A DNA stretch of 64,000 nt from a virus: IMG/VR virus record IMGVR_UViG_3300008107_005910, positions 1 through 64,000 of that record; one strand, written 5' to 3'. The position numbers were made by a program, and so were the translations under genes. Positions 190 to 60,423 of the stretch are shown piece after piece (within the stretch, counting starts at the first letter, position 1; each line of letters begins with the position of its first letter). The notes beneath the pieces were generated by a model that did no database searches, had not been told where the DNA came from, and worked only from the letters and a program-made list of their open reading frames with translations.

Positions 190-390
190 ATGTTTATAGT
201 AGAAAGTAAAGAAGTAAGTAAAGAGTTTGTCACTCTTGATGAGGCAATGAAGTTTAGTAAAGAGCTAAACTGTTTTGTTAGCATCAAAGGCGGTGGTATG
301 GAATTGGTTGGCATATTTGGTGCTGACGAAGTTAAGGATGGTAAACTTCCTAGCGGAGTGGATTATACTTGGAAAAAACGGAGAATTTAA
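190..390 (+). CDS. hypothetical phage protein
   Basis: 66 aa ORF with AAGGA upstream, tightly packed with neighbours. Confidence 0.65.
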   Translation: MFIVESKEVSKEFVTLDEAMKFSKELNCFVSIKGGGMELVGIFGADEVKDGKLPSGVDYTWKKRRI

Positions 391-585
391 ATGGAGATAT
401 CTAGAGTTCAACAAGCACAGATTCAAAGATACAATTTAGAACAGGTTCGTTTCCAAGAAAAAAGAGACGAAGACTATCGTAAACTTGTAGAAAAAAGAAA
501 TCTTGACAGGATAGCTGAAGAACGAGTAGAACGAAATATTCGTTTGGATTTGGACAAAGGTCGCAATATTGACATAAAATGTTAA
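391..585 (+). CDS. hypothetical protein
   Basis: 64 aa ORF, GGAG RBS, abuts upstream stop. Confidence 0.6.
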   Translation: MEISRVQQAQIQRYNLEQVRFQEKRDEDYRKLVEKRNLDRIAEERVERNIRLDLDKGRNIDIKC

Positions 586-4537: not shown

Positions 4538-5353
4538 ATGAACATAGATTTTTCAAATCTTGAAACACAAGGTTATATAGTGATACCTAACTTTTTATCA
4601 ATTGAAGAAATTGATATGTTCATTACTGATAAAAATACCAGTACAAGATTGTTTAATAGTTTTCATAGCATACCAATGCCATCAAAAACTATTCTTGAAA
4701 AAATTTCACCTAAAGTATTAGACCTAATGAATCAGATTGGTGACAATACGTCAATTAAAACCAATGTGATATCAATGTTATCCTTATATATGGATACGTC
4801 TAATTTTCAAATGCCTTGGCATCAAGATCATGTGTCATGGTACATTGATCAACATCATGATAATTATTTAAATTTTTATATTTCAATTATTAAACCTAAT
4901 TCAAATTTATCAGGATTGAGTTTGATTCCTTACGATGTTATTGATAAAAATTTTCCTGAGTACAAAGAAAAATTTTTAGGGAAAGGGGCTAAAAGATTTT
5001 TCCCAAATAATAACAAGACAACTGTATTTGATGACGAAACTGGTGAGGAATATGATTTACCTATCAATATTGACAATGTACAAGTGTCCCCAAAAATAAA
5101 TCCTGGTGATGCTTTGATATTGAGAGGTGATGTAATTCATAAAACACAAGACACATTAACCAATCGTTTATCTGTTACAATTAGATGTTTGGATGGTAAC
5201 TTTGTTGTTAGTAAAAAGAAAATGTTAAGTACTGAATGTAAGACAAAAAGTTCAATTTTAACATCAAATTTAGATCTTTATAGAGCAGTGATAAATGCTT
5301 ATGGTGATAAAGAAACTATGACCATTTTTGAACTGTATGAAAAATGGAATTGA
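4538..5353 (+). CDS. phytanoyl-CoA dioxygenase-like 2OG-Fe(II) oxygenase
   Basis: GYIVIPNFLS, WHQD (HxD), PGDALILRGDVIH, NRLS. Confidence 0.8.
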   Translation: MNIDFSNLETQGYIVIPNFLSIEEIDMFITDKNTSTRLFNSFHSIPMPSKTILEKISPKVLDLMNQIGDNTSIKTNVISMLSLYMDTSNFQMPWHQDHVSWYIDQHHDNYLNFYISIIKPNSNLSGLSLIPYDVIDKNFPEYKEKFLGKGAKRFFPNNNKTTVFDDETGEEYDLPINIDNVQVSPKINPGDALILRGDVIHKTQDTLTNRLSVTIRCLDGNFVVSKKKMLSTECKTKSSILTSNLDLYRAVINAYGDKETMTIFELYEKWN

Positions 5354-5733
5354 GGAATTGTTGTAATCCCTTCAAAGCGAAGGCATCTTGGACGGGGGTT
5401 CGATTCCCCCCGGGTCCACCATAAGGAGATTAGTATGAACGACGATTTAACTCCCCTAGCAATAGGCGTAGTGGTTGTTTTAGTAGTTTTTGCTCTAGTC
5501 CTTTTATGATGGGCCCGACCGGTTTCGACAGGGTGAGATAGTAGAGACGGCAACACGGTAGGCGATGACCGTAAATCAAGCAAAACAAGTAAATGCAAAT
5601 GCAAAAGCAATTACAACTGAAGCAGAAGTAATGACTTTCACCTGGGATCTTCCAGCTAACGAAAGCCGTTACGCTCTAGCAGCCTAAGAAACTGCACTTC
5701 CGAGGTAGGACTTACCTTGTTATCAAAACAACC
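5354..5733 (+). ncRNA. ssrA: tmRNA, circularly permuted (two-piece) gene
   Basis: Acceptor piece ends GAC-GGGGG-TTCGATT-CCCCC-CGGGTCC-ACCA (5421) before the 5' piece GGGCCCG-ACCGGTTTCGAC (5511); G3:U70 pair; tag frame 5595-5687 ends YALAA*; outer ends approximate. Confidence 0.92.
5435..5509 (+). CDS. 24-aa hydrophobic peptide inside the tmRNA intervening segment
   Basis: AAGGAG RBS then MNDDLTPLAIGVVVVLVVFALVLL*; fills the spacer between the CCA and the tmRNA 5' end. Confidence 0.6.
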   Translation: MNDDLTPLAIGVVVVLVVFALVLL

Positions 5734-5760
5734 AAATAGCACCTTCGGGTGCTATTTTTT
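5734..5760 (+). terminator. intrinsic terminator
   Basis: AAATAGCACC-TTCG-GGTGCTATTT + T run between convergent units. Confidence 0.85.
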
Positions 5761-5762
5761 GA

Positions 5763-6227
5763 TTATCTCGGATAAACTAGTACGCTTTCCTCAGTACCAA
5801 CAATTGGATCAACAATAAGTTTGCCAAATCCCAACATTGTTTCGTTAGAGTTAATAGCAATTTCTTTATTGTTGTTACTGTTAGTTATGGCAAGATCAGT
5901 ACTTTTCCCAATACCATAAATTTGAGTAAGACTAGGTACAAGTACACTAGCCCACTTCAACGCAGTGTCGCCGACGCTGGTTGGCTGTTCAATTCTAGGA
6001 CTGTTATTAGACTGTGTTCCCTGCTGTAGTGCGATAACTGCTGCCACTCGAGCAGTAGTGTCTCCACTGTTGGCGATTGCTTGTAATGTTTTATATCGTT
6101 CAATGTCTGCTTGTGCTCGCGCAACTGCAATATTTTCTTGAGTTTGAGCATATTGTTGATAATTCCCAGATGCGCATCCGGTTAGAAAAATTAAGCCAAT
6201 TGATATGGCTAGAACAGATTTGTTCAT
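5763..6227 (-). CDS. lipoprotein
   Basis: Signal peptide with lipobox LTGC. Confidence 0.75.
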   Translation of the reverse strand: MNKSVLAISIGLIFLTGCASGNYQQYAQTQENIAVARAQADIERYKTLQAIANSGDTTARVAAVIALQQGTQSNNSPRIEQPTSVGDTALKWASVLVPSLTQIYGIGKSTDLAITNSNNNKEIAINSNETMLGFGKLIVDPIVGTEESVLVYPR

Positions 6228-30289: not shown

Positions 30290-31006
30290 TTATTGGTTGT
30301 CAAGTGTAACTGTAGTATTCAATACGGCTGATCCAAATGTCCACTTAGCAGTTGCGCCACTAGCGAACTGTGCGCCAGCAGAACTGGTACCACCCCAAAC
30401 GTTTGCGGCTGGAACCAATGTACACTTACGATTACTAATCTTTGTAACAAAATATGTACCGCCTGCGCTGTCAGTTGCTCTAATGCTCATTTGTCCATCA
30501 GCTAGATTTTCAGTAGCAACAAGTTTTAAAATTGCTGTGCCATCTGCTGTCTGTACTTTGAAACGACGTGAGCCTACTTGCTTAATAACATCTCCAGCTG
30601 TGTTATCACTACCGCCAGGAATTTGTGCTTCACACATCAACCCATTTTGACGAGCAGTACCACTAGATGTTAAAGTAGCAACAGGGGTAGCACTTCCAGA
30701 TCCTCCTGCAACACTACCGTTGAAAGTAATAGTTGGAGCACTTGTGTAACCAGAACCTGCTGATACAACTTCCACTGTATAAGCAGTTGCGCCAGTAACT
30801 ATAACTCTTAGTACTGGTTTAGCTCCGCCTGCAACGTTAGGAGCACCAATTTGTGCCGCTGGAATTGGATATGTACCGTTTACTAGATCAGCCAATGTGC
30901 CAGCTGGAGCTGTTACGCTGGCGATGCTTTCTCCGCCTACGTTTGCTGTGCCAAAATCTTGATAGTTAGTATTGGCAAAATATTTTTTGTTTAATGGACG
31001 TCCCAT
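30290..31006 (-). CDS. probable virion structural protein
   Basis: MGRPLNKKYF start; GSGYTSAPTITF beta motif; Gly/Ala/Thr-rich. Confidence 0.7.
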   Translation of the reverse strand: MGRPLNKKYFANTNYQDFGTANVGGESIASVTAPAGTLADLVNGTYPIPAAQIGAPNVAGGAKPVLRVIVTGATAYTVEVVSAGSGYTSAPTITFNGSVAGGSGSATPVATLTSSGTARQNGLMCEAQIPGGSDNTAGDVIKQVGSRRFKVQTADGTAILKLVATENLADGQMSIRATDSAGGTYFVTKISNRKCTLVPAANVWGGTSSAGAQFASGATAKWTFGSAVLNTTVTLDNQ

Positions 31007-31087
31007 TTGTTTTCTCCTTATGTTGACGTTCTAGGTCATACGCTGTGGGTACAGCATAAACTTGCCCTATGCAAGCTGACTGTATAT

Positions 31088-43472: not shown

Positions 43473-43921
43473 CCCAGTCTAATATAACGAACTCCTTTTT
43501 GTTGTAGTCCTTCTTTGACTGTTCTAATGAATGTGGATGTATCAATTGGGTCATACAACGGTATCCCCAATGCTTCCATTAGTTTGCTGTCGTCATCCAA
43601 TAAATGCCCTCTCCCGCAGATACTGTAACATCCGTTTGCGCCCGCATTAACAAAAAGTATGCTTCCATAATTTTCTGCCCATCCTTTGATGTTAAGTTTA
43701 ATTTGTTCGTATGCTTTGTATATTACAAATCCAGCAACTCCGTATATAATAACACGTTTACCTTGACTGGCAAGACCTGCGGCAATATTGACCATGTTAG
43801 GCTCTTGAACACCACAATTAATAATGTTATAATTGCTGTCAGTCCACTTCCACATGTCGCAATGAAGAAAATATACTTCTCCTGGATAGCGATTTAAAAA
43901 TTTATGTAAGGTTTCTCTCAT
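43445..43921 (-). CDS. transketolase-like, pyrimidine-binding (C-terminal) subunit
   Basis: NCGVQEPNMVNIAAGLA, AYEQIK, YIRLG. Confidence 0.85.
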   Translation of the reverse strand: MRETLHKFLNRYPGEVYFLHCDMWKWTDSNYNIINCGVQEPNMVNIAAGLASQGKRVIIYGVAGFVIYKAYEQIKLNIKGWAENYGSILFVNAGANGCYSICGRGHLLDDDSKLMEALGIPLYDPIDTSTFIRTVKEGLQQKGVRYIRLGWDTAPWKS

Positions 43922-45179
43922 CTTCTAACCATTTGTAAAATTCTTTTCCTCGCTGGATATCAATTAACTCTTGTGGATTGACTGCATCCTTGGGTCTAGT
44001 AACGTCACTTCTAAATCCTGATAATACATAGTCCCAAGCTTCAGCTGGGAAAATATCTATCTCTTTCCAATCCTCTACTGGCGCATTTTTATACAAGTCC
44101 CAATACTCGTTTGATCTCTTTGAATATTTGTAGTGAGCAATAATAAAATTCATAACACCATCAAACTCATCATTGGTTTGTTGATTATATTCTTGTTCAG
44201 TTAAGTTGCCATCAATGTAACTTGTTATTCTTTTTAATGCAGAAGTTGTCAAATATAATCCAGTTGATTCAATTGGTTCAATAAATGCTGAGCATAATCC
44301 AATTGCTACAACATTATCTTTCATGTGTACTTTGTTGCGCCCAGTACGCATACGAACAGTACCAATTTTGTTTCTATCAACTATTAAATGAAACTTATGT
44401 TGTATGTACTCAATAAACTCGTCCATGACATCAAACTTGTCACAATGCACGTAACCAACTGCCAGCTGATCGCCTAGTGGAATATTCCAAATCCATCCGC
44501 TATTTGCGGCTTTGAATATCGAATATGGTACACATTGATTCTGTTTGTCAGTATAAGGATGTCTAAAAACCAACGCTTTATTATTAGGAACTTTGTCTGA
44601 TATCTCAACAAAGTTGTCGTCCCAATTAGTCAACAGCTTTTTAAATCCTGTTGAGTCAATAACTAAATCAAAGCCTGTGACATCATCAACTGTTGCATCT
44701 TTACGTATGATGGTTAAATTTTTAAATTGTCCAACAAGTGTGTCCATGTACTTTAATATATCAGATGCTCTAAAGTGTACGGAGATATCTTTATATTCAT
44801 AAATGTTATCTGGAACTTTATTAATGGACATCATTCTATCAAGGCTACTGCTATTGTATTTGTCAGTTTGTCCAATACCAAATGGGAAAGTAAACTTTTC
44901 ACCTTCTTGATTAAAACCGTCAAATACAATACCTAACTTCAAAGTACCGTTGCAATGCTTAATGATATCTGCATGACTTATTCCTAAGTCATTTAAAAAA
45001 TGCGACACATCAGGTATCAGTGCTTCGCCAACTCCAATTGGACTATTCTCTTCTGGATATGTCCAAACGATCTCCTTATCTGGATATTGTTTGGCTAGAT
45101 AAAAAGCGGTTAGATATCCTGAAGTTCCTGCACCAACGATTGCAATTCTTCTAATGTTTCTATTTTCCTGTAGTGCCAT
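43902..45179 (-). CDS. flavin-dependent (tryptophan halogenase-like) enzyme
   Basis: IVGAGTSG, IGVGE, IDSTGF, GWIWNIPL (WxWxIP), FIEPIESTG. Confidence 0.88.
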   Translation of the reverse strand: MALQENRNIRRIAIVGAGTSGYLTAFYLAKQYPDKEIVWTYPEENSPIGVGEALIPDVSHFLNDLGISHADIIKHCNGTLKLGIVFDGFNQEGEKFTFPFGIGQTDKYNSSSLDRMMSINKVPDNIYEYKDISVHFRASDILKYMDTLVGQFKNLTIIRKDATVDDVTGFDLVIDSTGFKKLLTNWDDNFVEISDKVPNNKALVFRHPYTDKQNQCVPYSIFKAANSGWIWNIPLGDQLAVGYVHCDKFDVMDEFIEYIQHKFHLIVDRNKIGTVRMRTGRNKVHMKDNVVAIGLCSAFIEPIESTGLYLTTSALKRITSYIDGNLTEQEYNQQTNDEFDGVMNFIIAHYKYSKRSNEYWDLYKNAPVEDWKEIDIFPAEAWDYVLSGFRSDVTRPKDAVNPQELIDIQRGKEFYKWLEDERNLT

Positions 45180-52146: not shown

Positions 52147-52802
52147 TGATACTCCTTTAAGAAATCCATAGATACAATAACATCTAATTCTTTCTTTGTT
52201 CCTTCAAACGAAATATTGTCGCCACCATCTATTGTTTGATAAAATAATACTTTGTTTAATGTAAGAACTTGTTTTGAATGTTTGGCTGCAAACATTACTA
52301 AATTAATGTCGTTGTGTACATTATTATCCATTGGGAATGGAAAATGTTCAATTACTTTACGTTTAAAAATAAACTGTGATAATTGCAAGTGCTCTAAATT
52401 AAGATTAGATACAAATTCCTCTGGTGTAAGTAGCGCATCATTAAACAAGCGCATGAATGTTAGCTTGTCGTCTGTATTATATGTTGGACAGTAGTTACCA
52501 GCAATGATATCTGCAACTAAGGGGACTTCAAAGTTCTTTACTAGATAGTCATCATCTTCTAAAAAGTATACATACTCGCCTGAAGCTTTTGATAAAAGGA
52601 ATTGATAGACTTTAGATAGATTATCAAACTTATTAAAATAATAAGTTATGTTAGGATGGTAGTCTTCTGGAATCACATCATCACTATCATTATTGACTAT
52701 GATCTCTACGTTGTTATTGTCAAGCAATAGACGTGCAGATTTCAAACAGCGTTTGAATAACTCTGGACGTTTATGTGTAGGTATCAATATGCTTAGTTTC
52801 AT
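52143..52802 (-). CDS. glycosyltransferase family 2
   Basis: LSILIPT..RP, A.GEYVYFLEDDD. Confidence 0.88.
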   Translation of the reverse strand: MKLSILIPTHKRPELFKRCLKSARLLLDNNNVEIIVNNDSDDVIPEDYHPNITYYFNKFDNLSKVYQFLLSKASGEYVYFLEDDDYLVKNFEVPLVADIIAGNYCPTYNTDDKLTFMRLFNDALLTPEEFVSNLNLEHLQLSQFIFKRKVIEHFPFPMDNNVHNDINLVMFAAKHSKQVLTLNKVLFYQTIDGGDNISFEGTKKELDVIVSMDFLKEYQ

Positions 52803-53866
52803 TTTTTTAAATAAAAGTTTACTTCTTTAATTTTTTCACCTGGTTCTGGATAAAATTCTTCATCCATTTCCTTTTTAATTCCATCACAAATATAAAAATG
52901 TTTACAAGTTACACAACTTAAATCTTTACGATAAAATCTTTCTCTATGACTGGCGGCTTCTTTATACGCCATTTTAACTTTCTCTTCCTCAGTATATGGT
53001 CTGCTTACATCCATTTCTTGATTGTAGGTTTCGCGATTCCAATCTCTAACATCATATATGTGTTGAAATATATTATACTGATATTGTTCATAACCCTTCA
53101 TATAGCAGTACGGAGTATATCGAACAATTATTTCAATTTCCTTATCTAATTTATCAATACATTTTTTAATACCGTCAGTTAAATCAGATAGACTTAAATT
53201 GCTAAAGTCTTCTTCATTGTTCTCAAGCCAATAATTTAATGTAATAAAATTAACAGCTACTGGCTTAATTGAATTAATTAGGTCTGCATAAACATTTTCA
53301 AGTTGATGATAATTTCTAGAATAAACTGTACAATTGATTCTAACAATCATTCCCAATTCTTGTGCGTTTTTTATTCCTTGTAATATTTTTTCATATGATC
53401 CTGGACGATTAGTAATTGCCTCATGTGTTTCTTTGGTAGGCCCATGTAAGCTGAACAATATCTCTTTTAATCCATGTTCCTTACTCTTACGTAAGTGATT
53501 CATATTGGCAAAAGTTCCGCCATGGCTTAGACAACTAATACTGGTAAATCTTTCATTACAGTAATCTAAAATTTTAAACCAATCAGGACTCATGGAACTT
53601 TCGCCGCCGCTTAAATCAACTTCAGTAATGCCGTAATCATACAAATAGTCAATCCTCTTTTTGACCACTTCCCATGGAGTTTTTTGATCTAGTATATCCC
53701 TATAATAACAAAATTCACAATCATAATTACATAACGGACCAGTGTCTAATCTAGACCTATTACATCTAGTAGATTTAAAATCATAATTTAATCCAGACAC
53801 ACTCAACTGTTGTAAGTCGTGTTGTACAGGAGATTGTTTTGTAAAAGATATTTTACTTTCTTTCAT
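52799..53866 (-). CDS. radical SAM protein with C-terminal CxxCx5C motif
   Basis: CNYDCEFC, SGGES, PYC, CVTCKHFYICDG. Confidence 0.9.
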   Translation of the reverse strand: MKESKISFTKQSPVQHDLQQLSVSGLNYDFKSTRCNRSRLDTGPLCNYDCEFCYYRDILDQKTPWEVVKKRIDYLYDYGITEVDLSGGESSMSPDWFKILDYCNERFTSISCLSHGGTFANMNHLRKSKEHGLKEILFSLHGPTKETHEAITNRPGSYEKILQGIKNAQELGMIVRINCTVYSRNYHQLENVYADLINSIKPVAVNFITLNYWLENNEEDFSNLSLSDLTDGIKKCIDKLDKEIEIIVRYTPYCYMKGYEQYQYNIFQHIYDVRDWNRETYNQEMDVSRPYTEEEKVKMAYKEAASHRERFYRKDLSCVTCKHFYICDGIKKEMDEEFYPEPGEKIKEVNFYLKK

Positions 53867-54792
53867 GTTATGAACTCTTTAACATATTTGATAAAATCAT
53901 CGTTATCTGTCAATAATAATGAATTAATGTCTTTTGAAATATCTTCTCGCCTTCTTTCAACGCCACCGCAGACATAATCAATATCATATATCACTTCCTT
54001 ACCATAAACTGCACACTCAACAATAAACCTTGGGCTACAATCTCCTTTATCTGGTGTAGCAGTATATATGTAGGTATCAAAGTTTTCAAATATATTTTTG
54101 ATTGGCGCTTGAGCAACAATCACATTGTCGCTTGCTATCGTTTTGTAGATGTGAGGTTCATTAGTAAGTACTAGATATTTGTCAAATTGATATTTAGATA
54201 AAACATTTTTCAAATCATTAATTGATAATGCTCTACAGTTAGTAGTTAGGTAGAGAAGTGCTGTATTAGTTTTTATTAGTTGTGGATGATGATATTTTGA
54301 CCAAAGTATCTTTTTGACATAGTCTATTACTTTGATATTAATGTTATCATATCTCTCAGGATATAACTTAAAATCCTGCATGACATGAGCATGTTTGATT
54401 GTTTTGTGATTATGGAAGCTACTGAAGTCGTCTTCACTACACCTTAGTAAAAACATATTTTCAGTATAGAAGACACAACTTAAGAATCGCCAACTGCCAT
54501 CAACAACACAGACATTGTTTGCCATAACAATTTTAGGCACAGCACACTCAAACGTGTCTTCTTGTATTTTTACAAATTCGTCTTCTGTGAAACTATATTT
54601 GTCTTTGACCGCAGTTAAAAATAAATCTTTGCTAGTACGGTCAGTTAACAAAATGCAGGAATTAATTCCATTGATAGAACTTATGTAATAATAGTCGATG
54701 AGTTCATACAAGTGGCCACTGACACCATGCTGGCATTCAAAAGAAGTGGTGAAGACGAGATCGTACTTCTTTAGATCGACTATTTTGGACAT
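53863..54792 (-). CDS. hypothetical protein (possible GT-B glycosyltransferase)
   Basis: HGVSGH; DCSPRFIVEC..YGK resembles the GT-B E-x7-E region. Confidence 0.55.
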   Translation of the reverse strand: MSKIVDLKKYDLVFTTSFECQHGVSGHLYELIDYYYISSINGINSCILLTDRTSKDLFLTAVKDKYSFTEDEFVKIQEDTFECAVPKIVMANNVCVVDGSWRFLSCVFYTENMFLLRCSEDDFSSFHNHKTIKHAHVMQDFKLYPERYDNINIKVIDYVKKILWSKYHHPQLIKTNTALLYLTTNCRALSINDLKNVLSKYQFDKYLVLTNEPHIYKTIASDNVIVAQAPIKNIFENFDTYIYTATPDKGDCSPRFIVECAVYGKEVIYDIDYVCGGVERRREDISKDINSLLLTDNDDFIKYVKEFIT

Positions 54793-54795
54793 CTG

Positions 54796-55797
54796 TCACT
54801 CCTTTGGAGCGAAGATTTGTTCAAGAGTGATTGGGGTGTAACCTAAAGAAACAAGCAAAGAATCTGAAAGATGTGGGAGTGGACGATTGTATTCTTTTTC
54901 TAATTCTTCTCTAAATCTAGAATATGCTGAACATATTCCTTCAACTGCGTCAACATCCACGTAGTCTAAATTTAAATTTTCTTTTTCCCACACAGATATT
55001 ATTCCGTTGTAATCTGCATATCCTTCAGGCATCTGAATTTTGTGATTTTCAATCTCAACGTAACCACTCTTTAATATATCTTCAAATTTAATAGATGTTA
55101 CGTCAGTGAGTTGGTTTAGTGTATATGCGTTAACTGCTGACCTAATTGCTCTTATTCGATTTCTCTCTGGAGACATTGTAGGATTTTTTTCATAATACGA
55201 AGGTTTATTTTCGTTGAAGTATGTAACTACGGAAGGGTGTCTTATGATATTGTACACCTTTACATTTTGCTCACCTATGTCTCTTTTTATTAAATCAATA
55301 AATGCTTTTGAAAAAGAACCATTTACAACATGTACATTAGATGGTCTATTTCTATAGTAATTTAAAAAGTCTTGATAACCGTGTGCAAAACTATGATACT
55401 GTATTGGAGTATCCCATTCATAGGCGCTAGTATCTATACCAAGATCATATTCTATATCAACAAAAATAGTTTCAAAACTTGAAGGATTATTTGTCATGTC
55501 TAAAAATAATCTATCATACAAGTCGTCAGCTTCTGTAAAAATAGACAACCCGTCCTCGCCGCTAAGAAGTGTTGTTAGTTCTCGATTTTTTGTATCATAA
55601 ACAACTTCATTTTGTGCATTGAATATTTGAAAAGGATGAGCTATATATGACTTACCATCGTCAGATTCTGCAAATTCTGCATCAAACGTAACAGTGTGTC
55701 CATTTTTCAAATTAAAGACTGGATTCATAGCGCAAAAAACTTTTTTTGCGATATAATTTTTATTAATTGATTCTAGACCACTAATAATGACTAACAT
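54796..55797 (-). CDS. hypothetical protein (paralog of 49019..49708)
   Basis: ISGL, GSFS..F.D.IK.D, NIIRHP, KFEDIL, LGY.P. Confidence 0.6.
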   Translation of the reverse strand: MLVIISGLESINKNYIAKKVFCAMNPVFNLKNGHTVTFDAEFAESDDGKSYIAHPFQIFNAQNEVVYDTKNRELTTLLSGEDGLSIFTEADDLYDRLFLDMTNNPSSFETIFVDIEYDLGIDTSAYEWDTPIQYHSFAHGYQDFLNYYRNRPSNVHVVNGSFSKAFIDLIKRDIGEQNVKVYNIIRHPSVVTYFNENKPSYYEKNPTMSPERNRIRAIRSAVNAYTLNQLTDVTSIKFEDILKSGYVEIENHKIQMPEGYADYNGIISVWEKENLNLDYVDVDAVEGICSAYSRFREELEKEYNRPLPHLSDSLLVSLGYTPITLEQIFAPKE

Positions 55798-55801
55798 CCA
55801 A

Positions 55802-56209
55802 TTATTTCCTTAGATAAGACTCAACAATCAAATTAACTGCGTCCTCATCATTTTGATTTGGCAGTCTTTTTAATTTGTTTATAATATCAAAATACTGTTC
55901 TTTTTTATCTTCTAAAATTTTAATTTCGTCTTTTAAAGTGATGTATTTTTCTAAATCTGCAATCAATGACTCGTCATTAAGTTCAATGATTTTAATATAA
56001 CATTCTTCTTTATTATCATCTGTGATTGCAATGCCTTTACTTAAAAATTTATTGTTTAACATCATTAAAGACACGAAGTCAATTAATTTAAAAGTTAAAA
56101 GGTCATCACCAAAATAACCACGGGCCTTAGTTTTAACTGCCCATGCCGCTTTTCCTGCATAAGTTGATCTGTCAATACCTTCTATTTCTTTTTTATTACT
56201 GTCATCCAT
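55802..56209 (-). CDS. hypothetical protein
   Basis: Start moved to MDDSNKK (GAGG RBS, right after the S74-frame stop). Confidence 0.65.
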   Translation of the reverse strand: MDDSNKKEIEGIDRSTYAGKAAWAVKTKARGYFGDDLLTFKLIDFVSLMMLNNKFLSKGIAITDDNKEECYIKIIELNDESLIADLEKYITLKDEIKILEDKKEQYFDIINKLKRLPNQNDEDAVNLIVESYLRK

Positions 56210-56210
56210 C

Positions 56211-56429
56211 TTAAGCCTCAATCATTTTTACTGGTAATTTTGAATAGTTTACTTGATAATAACCGTTTGAATCTTTACTTAGTGCATCTTCATATTTGGT
56301 GCCTAAAAGTTCTTGAGCCATAACACCAATATAAGTCTTAGCAGTGTTCCAAACGTAAGAGAAGGAATAAACATTTAAGCCTTCAACAATGTCAACAAGT
56401 TTGATAGATGTCTTTAATCTAATATCACT
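56211..56429 (-). pseudogene. orphan peptidase S74 / intramolecular chaperone domain, out of frame with 56428..56643
   Basis: Hand translation SDIRLKTSIKLVDIVEGLNVYSFSYVWNTAKTYIGVMAQELLGTKYEDALSKDSNGYYQVNYSKL...EA*; SD-x-RLK, G-x-MAQE, V-x-Y motifs; no start codon of its own. Confidence 0.8.
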
Positions 56430-56643
56430 AATTTAAATCGGCAGCTTCAATCAAACCAGTAAATCTAGCTTGAACTACAGGTGCGGCGGTGCTTCCTCGT
56501 CTAACACGTTCTAAATTGACTGCGGTTTCAATTTCTCTAAATTTGGTAGTTGTAACTTGTACTCCGGCTGCAACTGCTGGCAAAAAATAAATTACAGCAT
56601 CTGATCCAGGATTGGTACCAAATGTATTAATGACTTTTGGCAT
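56428..56643 (-). CDS. N-terminal part of candidate substrate/precursor protein
   Basis: GAGGAG RBS; stops at AAT TAG exactly where the S74 frame begins (+1). Confidence 0.7.
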   Translation of the reverse strand: MPKVINTFGTNPGSDAVIYFLPAVAAGVQVTTTKFREIETAVNLERVRRGSTAAPVVQARFTGLIEAADLN

Positions 56644-56656
56644 TACGTTGCTCCTC

Positions 56657-57046
56657 TTATATCTCTTTGTTCAAGAACTCTAAGTTCTGTTTAGCACTAT
56701 TTTGAGCAACAAACTTTTCATAATCGTCTAAATCAGAAGAGGCAGTTATAAAATCGAGAGTCTCTTCGTCTGGTGCTTTAGTAAAATTCATGTTTCCGTT
56801 TTCTACGGCTTGTTTTTCCAAAATGCTCAAAACTAATTCTTCCAATGAAAAACCCAAAATGCCTGTAACAATTTGGATTTTTTCGCTTACATCCATATTT
56901 TTTGTTTCAGCAACATGTTTGGCTGCTTTGATAATGTTTATTGACATACCAAAGCCTTCCATGAAGACGTATCCAACATCTTGATTCTCTTTCTCGATTT
57001 CCTTAATCAAATCATAAATTTGACCCATTTTTTCTTCAATCGCCAT
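56657..57046 (-). CDS. hypothetical protein
   Basis: AAGGA RBS; 129 aa. Confidence 0.65.
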   Translation of the reverse strand: MAIEEKMGQIYDLIKEIEKENQDVGYVFMEGFGMSINIIKAAKHVAETKNMDVSEKIQIVTGILGFSLEELVLSILEKQAVENGNMNFTKAPDEETLDFITASSDLDDYEKFVAQNSAKQNLEFLNKEI

Positions 57047-57926
57047 TTTTTAATTCCTTGTCTTTAAAATCGTGAAAACGCGGCGCATTTTCGTAATTAC
57101 CATATGTTGTGACGTTGCCTTCATCAGTGAAATACGTTTTTAACTGCTTTCGCTCCCCGCATCCGTTGCACATATCGCAAAATAGTTCACAAATAGGGGT
57201 TTTTATGCTGTTATTTATCCAATCATCTCTGAGCTGATTTTTAATCCTATCTAGGGTTTTCACATCGTTTTCGTCAATTTGTTCCCAAACTACAGATGTT
57301 ATCAATCTAACTGGCTTGAAGGTTTTAATGATTCTTGTCATATCTTCATAAAGATGATTGATATTAAGTTTGTGTATGGTATATCTTATTCTAAATTTCA
57401 CCCTATTTTGATTTAATTTAGATAAAACTTTAATTATGGTTGTAGTACTATCCATACCATTGTGGAAAATCCTATCGCCATTTCCCACACCGTCAAAGCT
57501 CACGTCTATGCTCAACTGTCCGCTCTTATAAAAGAAATTATTTTTAACCCTGTTAATAAATCTTTGACTTAAAAATCTTAAACCATTTGTGGTTAAATTA
57601 AAATGTACATTCTTTTTCTTAAGATATGCGTATGACATAGCGTAACAGACATTGTCCCATTCTAAAGTGGCCTCTCCACCAAATAGTACTATTAATGTTT
57701 GTCTGTCTGGATCCAATTCTCTTTCCAAGATAGCATCAATGCTTTTTTCAATATCTTCCTTAGTCATGATCTGTGGAGGACGACCTGGCAGATCTTCGTA
57801 ACAATAGGTGCAGGCTAAATTACACTTATTTGTAAAATATAAAACATTAACTGCTGAACCTTCAAAAGTAGGTTTCTCTGTTTTATCACCTACATAAAAT
57901 TCATAAGGAAAGGCCGTATCTGTCAT
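57036..57926 (-). CDS. radical SAM protein (anaerobic sulfatase-maturase-like core)
   Basis: CNLACTYC, FGGEAT, TTNG, SFDG; CELFCDMCNGC. Confidence 0.9.
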   Translation of the reverse strand: MTDTAFPYEFYVGDKTEKPTFEGSAVNVLYFTNKCNLACTYCYEDLPGRPPQIMTKEDIEKSIDAILERELDPDRQTLIVLFGGEATLEWDNVCYAMSYAYLKKKNVHFNLTTNGLRFLSQRFINRVKNNFFYKSGQLSIDVSFDGVGNGDRIFHNGMDSTTTIIKVLSKLNQNRVKFRIRYTIHKLNINHLYEDMTRIIKTFKPVRLITSVVWEQIDENDVKTLDRIKNQLRDDWINNSIKTPICELFCDMCNGCGERKQLKTYFTDEGNVTTYGNYENAPRFHDFKDKELKNGD

Positions 57927-58192
57927 TGTCTAGCCTTTGCTTCTTTTACAATGTGAGCAACATTATCTAAGAATTTTACGTAATCAAATTTATATTCAAA
58001 CAAGTGGCCTGCTTCATTCCTGTAATCAACATAATGATTGTCTACTTTTGCCTTGCCTTTTTTTGCTTCTTCAATTTGTTGTTGTAAATTATCAATAGTT
58101 AAAACAGTATCGCTCTTATGCTCAACTGGCTGCATTTCTACTTTAACAGGAATGGCAGCTATGCTTTTATAAGTTTTTTTTAATTCTTGCAT
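57923..58192 (-). CDS. small hypothetical protein
   Basis: 89 aa coupled between two radical SAM genes. Confidence 0.6.
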   Translation of the reverse strand: MQELKKTYKSIAAIPVKVEMQPVEHKSDTVLTIDNLQQQIEEAKKGKAKVDNHYVDYRNEAGHLFEYKFDYVKFLDNVAHIVKEAKARQ

Positions 58193-59307
58193 TTTTGCAC
58201 ATCCTTTGAATCAGAAGCACCTTCACTGAGCCAATGAACAATGAGGTCTTGAAATACTGGCTCATCTCGACATTCATCTACTACACGCATTGCTTGTTCG
58301 TAAGTGATGTGGAAAATTTCACAAATACTATCTAAAGGTTTGTTGTCGTTCATTATTTGACTGTAAGTACAACCTGCATTACATACTTGTTTTAGATCAC
58401 AAGGTTGGCACTTGTCAAAAGTTTTTGGATTAAACTTGTCTTGATAATATTTGAAATTATAATTGTCGTCCATGAGCATGATTTTCTTACTAGCAAATCT
58501 AGCACATGGATAAAACTCGCCGCTACTCATCAAAACACCACCGTGTGTTCCTGCAAAACAACCAAATGGTCTTTTACCTTTTACTAGTCCGTATATAGAA
58601 TCTAATATTGCCAGTCTAAGGAAACCAACACTACATGATACACCTTGTTTTAACTTTTCAATATAACAGTCAGTTAGTCTAACTAATTCAGTTTTGAAAA
58701 ATCTAATATCATCAGCAGTCCAAACATCGTCTCTAACAATACTAAAGTCTGGATGTGGGATACCCCAATCTAAAAGAAACTCAAAATTTTCTTTCATGTC
58801 TTTGGTATTGCCTGGCCAAATCATAACCTTACATCCATTTGCTAGATCTTTTATTAGATGTTTTTTGTGCTCGTATAAGTCTAAGATTCCATTAAACAAC
58901 TCTCCAGTTTCTGGATTAGTGTTTTCAAGTAAGGGAAGTAATGGTCTGCTTTCGTTTGAACTCATTCCATCAAAGCTCCAACTTATTCCTATTCCAGATT
59001 CTTTGATAAATTTAAACTTATCATCATCTATCATAGTTAAATTAGAGATAATGTTTATTCCTTTACATCTAGGATCTTTGGTTAATATTGGAGTTGCATG
59101 TTTGATCAATTCCCAATTTAATAAAGGCTCTCCTCCAAAAAAACTAACAAAGAAATCCTTTTGTCCAGAACGATCCATTAATTCAAATAGTTTTGGTAAA
59201 GATTCATCAAATGTTTCTTTGGTCATCCAAGTAGGACGATTTGCCACATAACAATAAGGACATCCCAAATTACATTTTTCAGTAACGCTAATTTCTAATA
59301 CAAACAT
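58180..59307 (-). CDS. radical SAM/SPASM maturase
   Basis: CNLGCPYC, FFGGEPLL, CFAG..G..YPC, C.PC...VCNAGC, C. Confidence 0.92.
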   Translation of the reverse strand: MFVLEISVTEKCNLGCPYCYVANRPTWMTKETFDESLPKLFELMDRSGQKDFFVSFFGGEPLLNWELIKHATPILTKDPRCKGINIISNLTMIDDDKFKFIKESGIGISWSFDGMSSNESRPLLPLLENTNPETGELFNGILDLYEHKKHLIKDLANGCKVMIWPGNTKDMKENFEFLLDWGIPHPDFSIVRDDVWTADDIRFFKTELVRLTDCYIEKLKQGVSCSVGFLRLAILDSIYGLVKGKRPFGCFAGTHGGVLMSSGEFYPCARFASKKIMLMDDNYNFKYYQDKFNPKTFDKCQPCDLKQVCNAGCTYSQIMNDNKPLDSICEIFHITYEQAMRVVDECRDEPVFQDLIVHWLSEGASDSKDVQKCKN

Positions 59308-59316
59308 ATCGTCTCC

Positions 59317-60423
59317 TTATGCTGTACATTGTTCAGCGTGAATCTTAATAACAGGCTTTTTGTATGTGTTCATTGCAGTTCTTAGAGCATGATGAACTAC
59401 TTCGTTTGTCTTAAAAACTTTACATACTTGCCAATTAGAAGTATGATCACTCCACTTTTCTAAATAAGTTTCTTTCTCTGATTTTTCAAACGTGGCTGCA
59501 TTACACTTCATGCAAAATTGGCTATCGCAACTCATACAATCCAAAGGTTGATTTTTTAGTGCATCTTTATACATTGCACTTCGTTCTTGTATAAGTTCAT
59601 CTATGTTAGGTGTTGTATTAATATTACCCATAACATGTGCATGTGATTCTTTATACATACAACCATGGCAAGGACTAATATCTCCGTTTAGGTCAACACT
59701 AACATATTTGATTCCAGCTGAACATAGCGGTCTACTCTGTTGGAACCAAGCAAAAACTTCTGGTTTTAGTTTATTGGTGTAAATGTATTTTGCAATTTTT
59801 GCCAATCCCTGTTTGAGCACTTCAAGTTTTGGATAAAATTCTTCTTCAGTTAATTGGCTGTAAAGGTCTGGAGTGGGGAAATATGAACCTGTAAGTTCAT
59901 ATACATCTAGGAATGCTTCATATATCAAGTGAAAGTTTTCAGCAGTTAAAACAGATTTCATTCTAACATTCAATCCATTTTCTCTAGCAGCCAAGAAATT
60001 AGCCTTTACTAGTTCAGAGCTTACGTTTCCTGATTTGTCTACTCTAGTTCTATCATTGACGGCCTTACCATCATAAGATATTTGGAACTGTAGTCTTTCA
60101 CCTAATTCTTTTGTTAGAGCAACTAGTTCTTTCATATACTTTCTTAAATATACACCATTGGTATAAAAGAAGAAACTATAATTAGAATCATGTTTATATT
60201 TTTCTATGACGCCTTTACAAAATTCCCAATTAATAAAAGGTTCACCGCCCCAAAAATAAATTTCTCTTTTTGGGTCTGAGAGTTTACTCATAAACTCTTC
60301 AATGTTGTCTAGGGTTACGGAAGTGTTTTCTTCATATGCTGTTGATAGGCCGCATTCATAGCCTTCAGAACAGTAAGTACAAGCCAGATTGCACGTACTG
60401 GTTACGTTGATGTCAATTATCAT
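59317..60423 (-). CDS. radical SAM/SPASM maturase
   Basis: CNLACTYC, WGGEP, CSAG..GDISPCHGC, CMSC...CMKC, C. Confidence 0.92.
   Translation of the reverse strand: MIIDINVTSTCNLACTYCSEGYECGLSTAYEENTSVTLDNIEEFMSKLSDPKREIYFWGGEPFINWEFCKGVIEKYKHDSNYSFFFYTNGVYLRKYMKELVALTKELGERLQFQISYDGKAVNDRTRVDKSGNVSSELVKANFLAARENGLNVRMKSVLTAENFHLIYEAFLDVYELTGSYFPTPDLYSQLTEEEFYPKLEVLKQGLAKIAKYIYTNKLKPEVFAWFQQSRPLCSAGIKYVSVDLNGDISPCHGCMYKESHAHVMGNINTTPNIDELIQERSAMYKDALKNQPLDCMSCDSQFCMKCNAATFEKSEKETYLEKWSDHTSNWQVCKVFKTNEVVHHALRTAMNTYKKPVIKIHAEQCTA

Follow-up and report, generated by a model that had tools for sequence, protein, structure and literature searches.

A probable peptide gene in the intervening segment of a two-piece phage tmRNA

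Abstract

We describe a 24-codon open reading frame (ORF) with its own Shine-Dalgarno (SD) sequence inside the 89-nt intervening segment (spacer) of a two-piece tmRNA gene of a large phage. The best explanation, to which we assign a probability of roughly 0.8, is that a genuine passenger gene lies in the spacer and encodes a membrane peptide of 24 residues and a single helix. This reading builds on what was observed of the form of the tmRNA gene, the anatomy of the ORF, selection on the encoded peptide, covariation of the closing stem across the family, and the behavior of the spacer as a slot. The spacer, thought to be discarded, very probably also serves as a messenger.

Background

Phage copies of the two-piece tmRNA are known in aquatic phages (PMC9004378; PMC11915505). 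In a 2025 tmRNA database paper the spacer is absent from the mature RNA, and the only contents noted inside spacers are a tRNA-Ala gene and a repetitive element (PMC11915505). Full-text searches of the literature found no published description of coding spacers in tmRNA genes, in keeping with a preliminary description of this DNA, made from its sequence, which had not recognized the arrangement as one already described.

The window analyzed here is a stretch of 64,000 nt (positions 1 to 64,000 of IMG/VR record IMGVR_UViG_3300008107_005910). It forms part of a 76.8-kb viral contig with an estimated completeness of 22% (CheckV), which indicates that the source is a large phage.

Methods

Phage permuted tmRNAs were gathered using sequence patterns that required neither an ATG nor an open frame. 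These were T arm plus CCA; T arm plus CCA plus NAAGG; and CCA followed by the 12 bases that open the spacer in the window family, the last being searched in both viral contigs and metagenome contigs. Applied to genome contigs, the T arm, CCA and NAAGG pattern returned mainly bacterial tRNA-Ala genes and the ends of standard tmRNAs, with two permuted ARAGORN calls among 120 loci. An ATG-led ORF was defined by an ATG at spacer positions 8-18 and a frame of at least 10 codons. Stem pairing was scored over unique phage spacers of at least 40 nt (n = 113), with spacer position k set against position -(k+4) from the 3' end for k = 1-11. Values of pN/pS were computed on codons 2-19, which lie outside the stem.

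Results

A permuted tmRNA gene in a freshwater phage

Genes for a ribonucleotide reductase, a virion structural protein and radical-SAM enzymes are among the phage genes of the window, and DNA near-identical to it is held by freshwater, lake and river metagenomes from 12 studies. The single ARAGORN call in the window is a permuted tmRNA at 5329-5778 on the plus strand, which scored 137.2 bits with Rfam model RF04321 (cut-off 47) and 119.2 bits with RF01850, the betaproteobacterial two-piece model (cut-off 84). The permuted order was confirmed by the upstream CGGGTCC-A-CCA (5411-5421), which pairs with GGGCCCG (5511-5517) downstream, and the alanine identity pair G3:U70 is present as G5513:T5415. 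Neither Rfam model includes the spacer, which aligns as an insertion. The parts of the gene are as follows.

5359-5421, plus strand: tmRNA acceptor piece, comprising T arm, 3' acceptor strand, discriminator and encoded CCA (RF04321 alignment start at 5359; ARAGORN)
5383-5421, plus strand: 3' tRNA domain (ARAGORN)
5411-5417, plus strand: 3' acceptor strand CGGGTCC, followed by discriminator A5418
5419-5421, plus strand: encoded CCA of the acceptor piece
5422-5510, plus strand: intervening segment (spacer), 89 nt, between the ARAGORN 3' and 5' tRNA domains
5511-5760, plus strand: tmRNA coding piece (ARAGORN, Rfam, terminator scan)
5511-5517, plus strand: 5' acceptor strand GGGCCCG, with which the coding piece starts at G5511
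5511-5536, plus strand: 5' tRNA domain (ARAGORN)
5595-5687, plus strand: tmRNA tag ORF, 30 residues, ending in YALAA (ARAGORN)
5734-5757, plus strand: terminator hairpin (terminator scan)

At 30 residues (...TTEAEVMTFTWDLPANESRYALAA), the tag is unusually long. Long tags of 24-31 residues are common to related phages (loci L251, L247, L239 and L140), and ordinary 10-residue tags occur in other phages with the same spacer family as the window. Recombination seems to affect the tag region and the spacer independently of each other. Directly 5' of the tmRNA lies a PhyH-type dioxygenase gene (4538-5353, plus strand; PF05721, E = 1.3e-6), and a promoter scan of the interval between the two found no convincing promoter. 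Because the dioxygenase stop codon (5351-5353) is only 5 nt ahead of the Rfam tmRNA start, the tmRNA may be co-transcribed with this gene.

Two further features were seen elsewhere in the window. A freshwater-2 RNA motif at 31004-31076 on the minus strand (Rfam 65.8 bits, cut-off 49.9) ends in AAGGAGAAAACAAATG, which places it directly ahead of a gene start on that strand. A tryptophan-halogenase-like gene and three radical-SAM genes, two of them adjacent, at 43905-45179 and 52802-60423 (both minus strand), may form a peptide- or nucleotide-modification cluster.

A 24-codon ORF fills the spacer

The preliminary description had reported an AAGGAG and a hydrophobic ORF within an 89-nt spacer, and this proved correct in every detail when checked against the sequence, ARAGORN and Rfam.

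5423-5428, plus strand: SD AAGGAG, with a 6-nt gap to the ATG (read from the sequence)
5435-5509, plus strand: 24-codon ORF encoding MNDDLTPLAIGVVVVLVVFALVLL (24 residues) followed by a stop; ATG at 5435-5437, TGA at 5507-5509

The SD begins 2 nt past the CCA, and the ATG is immediately outside the helix that closes the spacer. At the other end, the stop codon does fall 1 nt ahead of the mature 5' end as first noticed, with T5510 as the one base between the TGA and G5511. The predicted peptide has an acidic N-terminus, MNDD, and then 17 hydrophobic residues, and contains no basic residues. It is strongly hydrophobic, with a mean Kyte-Doolittle hydropathy of 3.5 over residues 8-24 and 3.55 in the best 15-residue window, which agrees with its earlier characterization as a hydrophobic peptide resembling a single transmembrane segment.

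The ORF is conserved and under purifying selection

In 39/39 unique spacers homologous to that of the window (20 from viral contigs, 39 once metagenome contigs were added), the ATG-to-TGA(T) frame is intact, with 22-26 codons, and the SD is present as well, although these counts of unique spacers overstate independence because the spacers derive from related phages and from overlapping sample sets. The preliminary description had named absence of the ORF or of its ribosome-binding site (RBS) from related spacers as evidence against its proposal; both are kept throughout. Spacer lengths are 83, 86, 89 or 92 nt, multiples of 3 apart, in 38 of the 39, and the remaining one is a divergent spacer of 94 nt in which the ATG is shifted by 1 nt. 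Within the 89-nt group, the variable columns number 13, 4 and 20 at codon positions 1, 2 and 3, respectively.

Substitution patterns agree with these observations. In the ORF frame, pN/pS was 0.22 over all pairs and 0.23 over 11 phylogenetically independent nearest pairs, a set that addresses kinship in part (50.8 synonymous changes at 154 sites vs 33.2 non-synonymous changes at 440 sites; Fisher 2e-13). The remaining two frames gave values of 1.07 and 2.71 and contained many stops. Comparison of the window with the homolog at locus L137 over codons 2-19 shows 10 synonymous changes and no non-synonymous one. The pN/pS values, the intact frames and the lengths in multiples of three are the signature of a translated, selected peptide, and on this comparative evidence the spacer ORF is very probably a real gene.

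Over the wider set of phage spacers, 78 have an AAGG at spacer positions 2-5, and 64 of these also have an ATG-led ORF, vs 3 of 35 spacers that lack AAGG (Fisher 6e-14), and the whole spacer interior was open in 62 of the 63 ORFs of this SD+ATG class, vs 9.5 expected from shuffles. The competing explanation is that of a chance ORF, in which a T-rich loop and a stem happen to hold AAGGAG and TGA and nothing is translated. The AAGG(G/C) stem motif and the TGAT box are indeed present independently of ORFs, and the folding z-scores given below are unremarkable. However, chance would have to account for 39 intact homologs out of 39, for length differences restricted to multiples of three in 38 of them, for substitutions strongly biased toward synonymous changes in this frame and no other, and for open interiors at more than the expected rate across the class, and we regard it as very improbable indeed.

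SD and stop codon lie in a general closing stem

The ends of the spacer pair with each other in the following elements.

5420-5433, plus strand: 5' arm of the closing stem, CATAAGGAGATTAG, which holds the SD (13/14 pairs, minimum free energy (MFE) fold, covariation)
5495-5508, plus strand: 3' arm of the closing stem, CTAGTCCTTTTATG, which encodes the C-terminal residues LVLL and takes in part of the stop
5507-5510, plus strand: TGAT box before the mature 5' end, which pairs with ACCA and whose TGA is the ORF stop

Checked by hand, 5420-5433 and 5495-5508 form the 13 of 14 pairs counted originally, three of which are G:U, with one mismatch (A5427 x C5501). The MFE fold of 5359-5560 draws the helix as a prolongation of the acceptor stem, as had been suggested, and in this predicted precursor fold the SD is base-paired. 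Folding energy was not significantly different from chance for the spacer hairpin alone (z = -1.44) or for the precursor (z = -1.49), and support for the stem therefore comes from comparison. Among the 113 unique phage spacers, 88% were paired in the stem register vs 41-56% in shifted registers, and most stem positions displayed two to six canonical pair types. This covariation is the compensatory pairing that the preliminary description had proposed to look for in related spacers. The stem consensus is (A/T)AAG(C/G)AYAYT ... ARTRTGCTTTTGAT, and the Rfam beta-type consensus spacer likewise opens with AAGgg. The TGAT, which faces ACCA, closes nearly all of the phage spacers listed, including those without an ORF. 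The helix is thus the general closing stem of permuted-tmRNA spacers.

Since the stem and the TGAT box are present in most ORF-less spacers, neither evolved to hide this RBS or to place this stop. Both are older than the ORF, which borrows them: the SD is a sharpened form of the AAGG motif of the stem, and the stop results when one of the three reading frames runs through the TGAT box. When the 36 spacer ORF families are sorted by their stops, 16 end at TGAT, 11 end about 12 nt earlier, short of the stem, and nine read into the mature tmRNA, so that use of TGAT shows no departure from one third (binomial p = 0.11). With the box found family-wide and used by 16 of 36 families, the idea of a stop placed by design at the RNase P site had to be given up.

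ORF-bearing stems are also weaker. Median stem energy is -6.3 kcal/mol in SD+ATG spacers vs -12.1 kcal/mol in others (p = 2.5e-5), the number of G:U pairs per stem is three vs one (p = 2e-11), and the stem of the window itself has an energy of -6.3 kcal/mol in the family register. This points to selection for access rather than sequestration, and the RBS would accordingly be only loosely masked in ORF-bearing spacers. The proposal that the stem sequesters the RBS therefore survives in so far as the SD does lie within the closing stem, but not as an account of the stem, which is shared with ORF-less spacers and is weaker where an ORF is present. We read the stem as a compromise, maintained because processing needs it but relaxed to let ribosomes in.

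The spacer behaves as an exchangeable slot

At least 36 unrelated families of spacer ORFs were found, with lengths of 10-73 codons. SD and ORF occurred together in 6 of 41 unique spacers (about 15%) in the sample gathered with the T arm plus CCA pattern, which is unselected for spacer content. In 53 tmRNA pairs the spacers are unrelated and yet the flanks (142 flanking bases) are 93-100% identical, and no ORF is present in the spacers (59 and 72 nt) of the two tmRNAs closest to that of the window (L058 and L112; 94%). Because near-identical tmRNAs carry unrelated ORFs or none, the ORF is dispensable for the tmRNA and swapped as a cassette between constant stems. The spacer is an exchangeable and dispensable slot.

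A membrane-like hydrophobic stretch was predicted in 30 of 63 spacer peptides of at least 15 residues, a proportion inflated by the targeted search for the window family, and about half of the other spacer ORFs encode soluble small proteins. The nine families that read through (L067, L131, L153, L132, L136, L139, L105, L128 and L172, among others) extend 27-90 nt into the coding piece; RNase P cleavage would turn these ORFs into stop-less messages, which are natural substrates of tmRNA. At locus L142, a 73-codon spacer ORF (329-547, plus strand) is a PGDYG domain (PF14083, 27.8 bits, a score that exceeds the gathering threshold; phrog_419, 1e-11), which indicates that bona fide proteins are encoded in tmRNA spacers. 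It was the only match, and the seven or nine other spacer peptides compared with Pfam and PHROGs gave nothing significant. The spacers of L060 (237 nt) and L006 (95 nt) contain T-arm-like and CCA-like fragments (GGTTCGAATCCACCA... and GGGTTCGATTCCCACC), which suggests that they hold nested or duplicated tRNA-like pieces.

RNA from the spacer region

A 169-nt contig from a river metatranscriptome matches 5361-5529 with 0 mismatches, running from the acceptor piece through the entire spacer into the beginning of the coding piece. Its first base is 2 nt away from where the Rfam model starts; in the same run, the flanking protein genes are without cover. The contig could represent an unprocessed precursor, though DNA carry-over may also explain it, as the RNA data consist of assembled contigs at low depth and the library may contain DNA. 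Metatranscriptome records of close relatives show adapters and A-tails attached immediately behind position 5421, which fits the predicted mature 3' end. Most of the metatranscriptome cover falls on conserved parts of other tmRNAs at 90-95% identity, and gaps in cover are uninformative. One X16 contig, in which 5427 is joined to 5521, was considered as a spliced form and rejected, because 231 other letters lie between the two positions and mark it as a relative with a different, longer spacer.

Function of the peptide

Searches of the window peptide against Pfam and PHROGs returned nothing better than E = 0.04, with all hits far below cut-offs, and toxin families gave no match. Blastn searches of 50,697 phage records with the tmRNA and its spacer, and with another ORF-bearing locus, matched only the T-arm/CCA part of unrelated phages and yielded no cultured relative. 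Our working guess is a small membrane-active peptide that serves in host takeover or in the timing of lysis.

The peptide might instead belong to a module resembling a type I toxin, with a membrane-damaging product and an SD hidden by a 5'-3' fold-back that is opened by tmRNA processing or 3' trimming. It is small enough (24 aa, i.e. less than 60 aa), very hydrophobic and devoid of basic residues, and an SD inside a 5'-3' closing helix resembles the fold-back inhibition of the hok and AapA1 toxin mRNAs. That helix, however, is the one found family-wide in tmRNA spacers with and without ORFs, and it is weaker, not stronger, when an ORF is present. Since both of its arms lie within the excised segment, cuts at CCA and G5511 alone would leave the SD paired, which weakens the idea of activation by processing. 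No known toxin family was matched, and a consensus scan, a weak test that a phage-type promoter could escape, showed no sigma-70-like minus-strand site within or beside the spacer from which an antisense RNA might start. With about half of the other spacer ORFs soluble, the slot is not specific to toxins either. What continues to speak for a toxin is the size and hydrophobicity of the peptide, and we consider this reading improbable.

A cis-acting leader ORF would work differently. Here a translating ribosome would melt the stem and cover the CCA and RNase P sites, and so tie tmRNA maturation to translation capacity. The geometry lends itself to this, as a ribosome at either end of an ORF whose SD starts 2 nt after the CCA and whose stop lies 1 nt before the RNase P site would be expected to clash with processing, and the 3' stem arm consists of the last codons. 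A pure leader would nevertheless have no need of an amino-acid sequence under purifying selection (pN/pS 0.23), closely related tmRNAs manage without any ORF, and the 36 unrelated families range from 10 to 73 codons, with nine that enter the mature tmRNA and 11 that stop short of the stem. A leader function is thus highly improbable as the explanation of the ORF, although it is compatible with a passenger gene and could accompany one as a side effect.

Discussion

In the most probable reading, the passenger gene was written into a pre-existing spacer architecture, in which the AAGG(G/C) of the 5' stem arm was strengthened into an SD and the 3' stem arm and conserved TGAT box supply the last codons and the stop. 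The tmRNA promoter would drive the peptide gene, which would then need no transcription signals of its own. We infer translation from the pattern of selection; the translated RNA species could be the tmRNA precursor or the excised, stem-closed spacer, and the hydrophobic segment would be expected to act at the membrane. The stem would be retained for tmRNA maturation and loosened for ribosomes (three G:U pairs, one mismatch, about -6 kcal/mol).

Given how close the SD is to the CCA (2 nt) and the stop to the RNase P site (1 nt), a molecule that is being translated should not be able to mature at the same time, and vice versa. The coupling of translation to processing put forward in the preliminary description is therefore plausible on steric grounds. 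The time available for translation may be short if 3' maturation proceeds by endonuclease cuts and exonuclease trimming, which would destroy the message.

A broader conjecture is that two-piece tmRNAs of phages are general bifunctional units. The same cuts would release or destroy the spacer message, and translation would compete with tmRNA production; a membrane peptide would aid tmRNA in host takeover, for example through membrane proteases that handle tagged proteins; and ORFs of the sister class that run across the RNase P site would supply stop-less messages for tmRNA. We think this unlikely and offer it as speculation.

With tmRNA spacers regarded as waste, and with gene callers that pass over the RNA gene as well as ORFs of less than 30 codons, a set of phage small proteins stays invisible in annotations. 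The proteins missed in this way amount to at least 36 families here and are encoded in about 15% of phage permuted tmRNAs in the unbiased sample. The passenger gene would add a case in which one precursor gives both a stable RNA and a protein. An SD and a stop codon superimposed on a processing helix would make a compact natural system for the study of competition between ribosomes and RNA-processing enzymes. The arrangement would also exemplify exaptation, in which an ancestral stem motif (AAGG...TGAT) became a pair of translation signals and G:U pairs then relaxed the stem.

Comparison with known systems

Type I toxin mRNAs with a 5'-3' fold-back include hok/sok and AapA1/IsoA1, and peptides are encoded by dual-function small RNAs such as SgrS/SgrT and RNAIII/hld. 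The window shares with the former a small hydrophobic peptide and an SD in a helix that joins the RNA ends, and with the latter a peptide-coding RNA that has a second, non-coding job, here as a precursor. Unlike the type I toxins, no antitoxin RNA and no homology to toxin families was found for the window, and its helix belongs to tmRNA maturation.

Permuted tmRNAs of the betaproteobacterial type (RF01850; general model RF04321) have the same form, in which an acceptor piece with CCA lies upstream and a coding piece lies downstream; their spacer is removed by tRNA-processing enzymes, as is predicted for the window. No coding role is reported for the spacers of described permuted tmRNAs, whereas that of the window appears to hold a selected peptide gene with its own SD. 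The tRNA-like fragments of L060 and L006 recall the tRNA-Ala gene reported inside a spacer (PMC11915505). Group I introns with homing-endonuclease ORFs also place protein-coding sequence within a removed part of the tmRNA gene, where they sit in the T loop (PMC11915505). Such introns are self-splicing and mobile, and their ORFs serve mobility; the spacer of the window, in contrast, is neither an intron nor a ribozyme, and spacers of its kind encode small non-nuclease peptides.

The nearest analogue is the intervening sequence (IVS) of the 23S rRNA of Coxiella burnetii, with its S23p ORF, an excised segment that is likewise closed by a stem, belongs to a stable-RNA precursor and contains an ORF (PMC4990558). 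The IVS is reported to be excised by RNase III, and its ORF to have no working RBS, to be seemingly untranslated in vivo and to be decaying (PMC4990558). The spacer of the window differs in its strong SD, an ORF under purifying selection, tmRNA as the host RNA, and tRNA-type processing sites at its ends. The spacer ORF is not in 23S rRNA, is not homologous to S23p and has no sequence homology to the Coxiella IVS. The present finding is thus related to two known kinds of element, namely ORF-bearing intervening sequences and dual-function RNA precursors.
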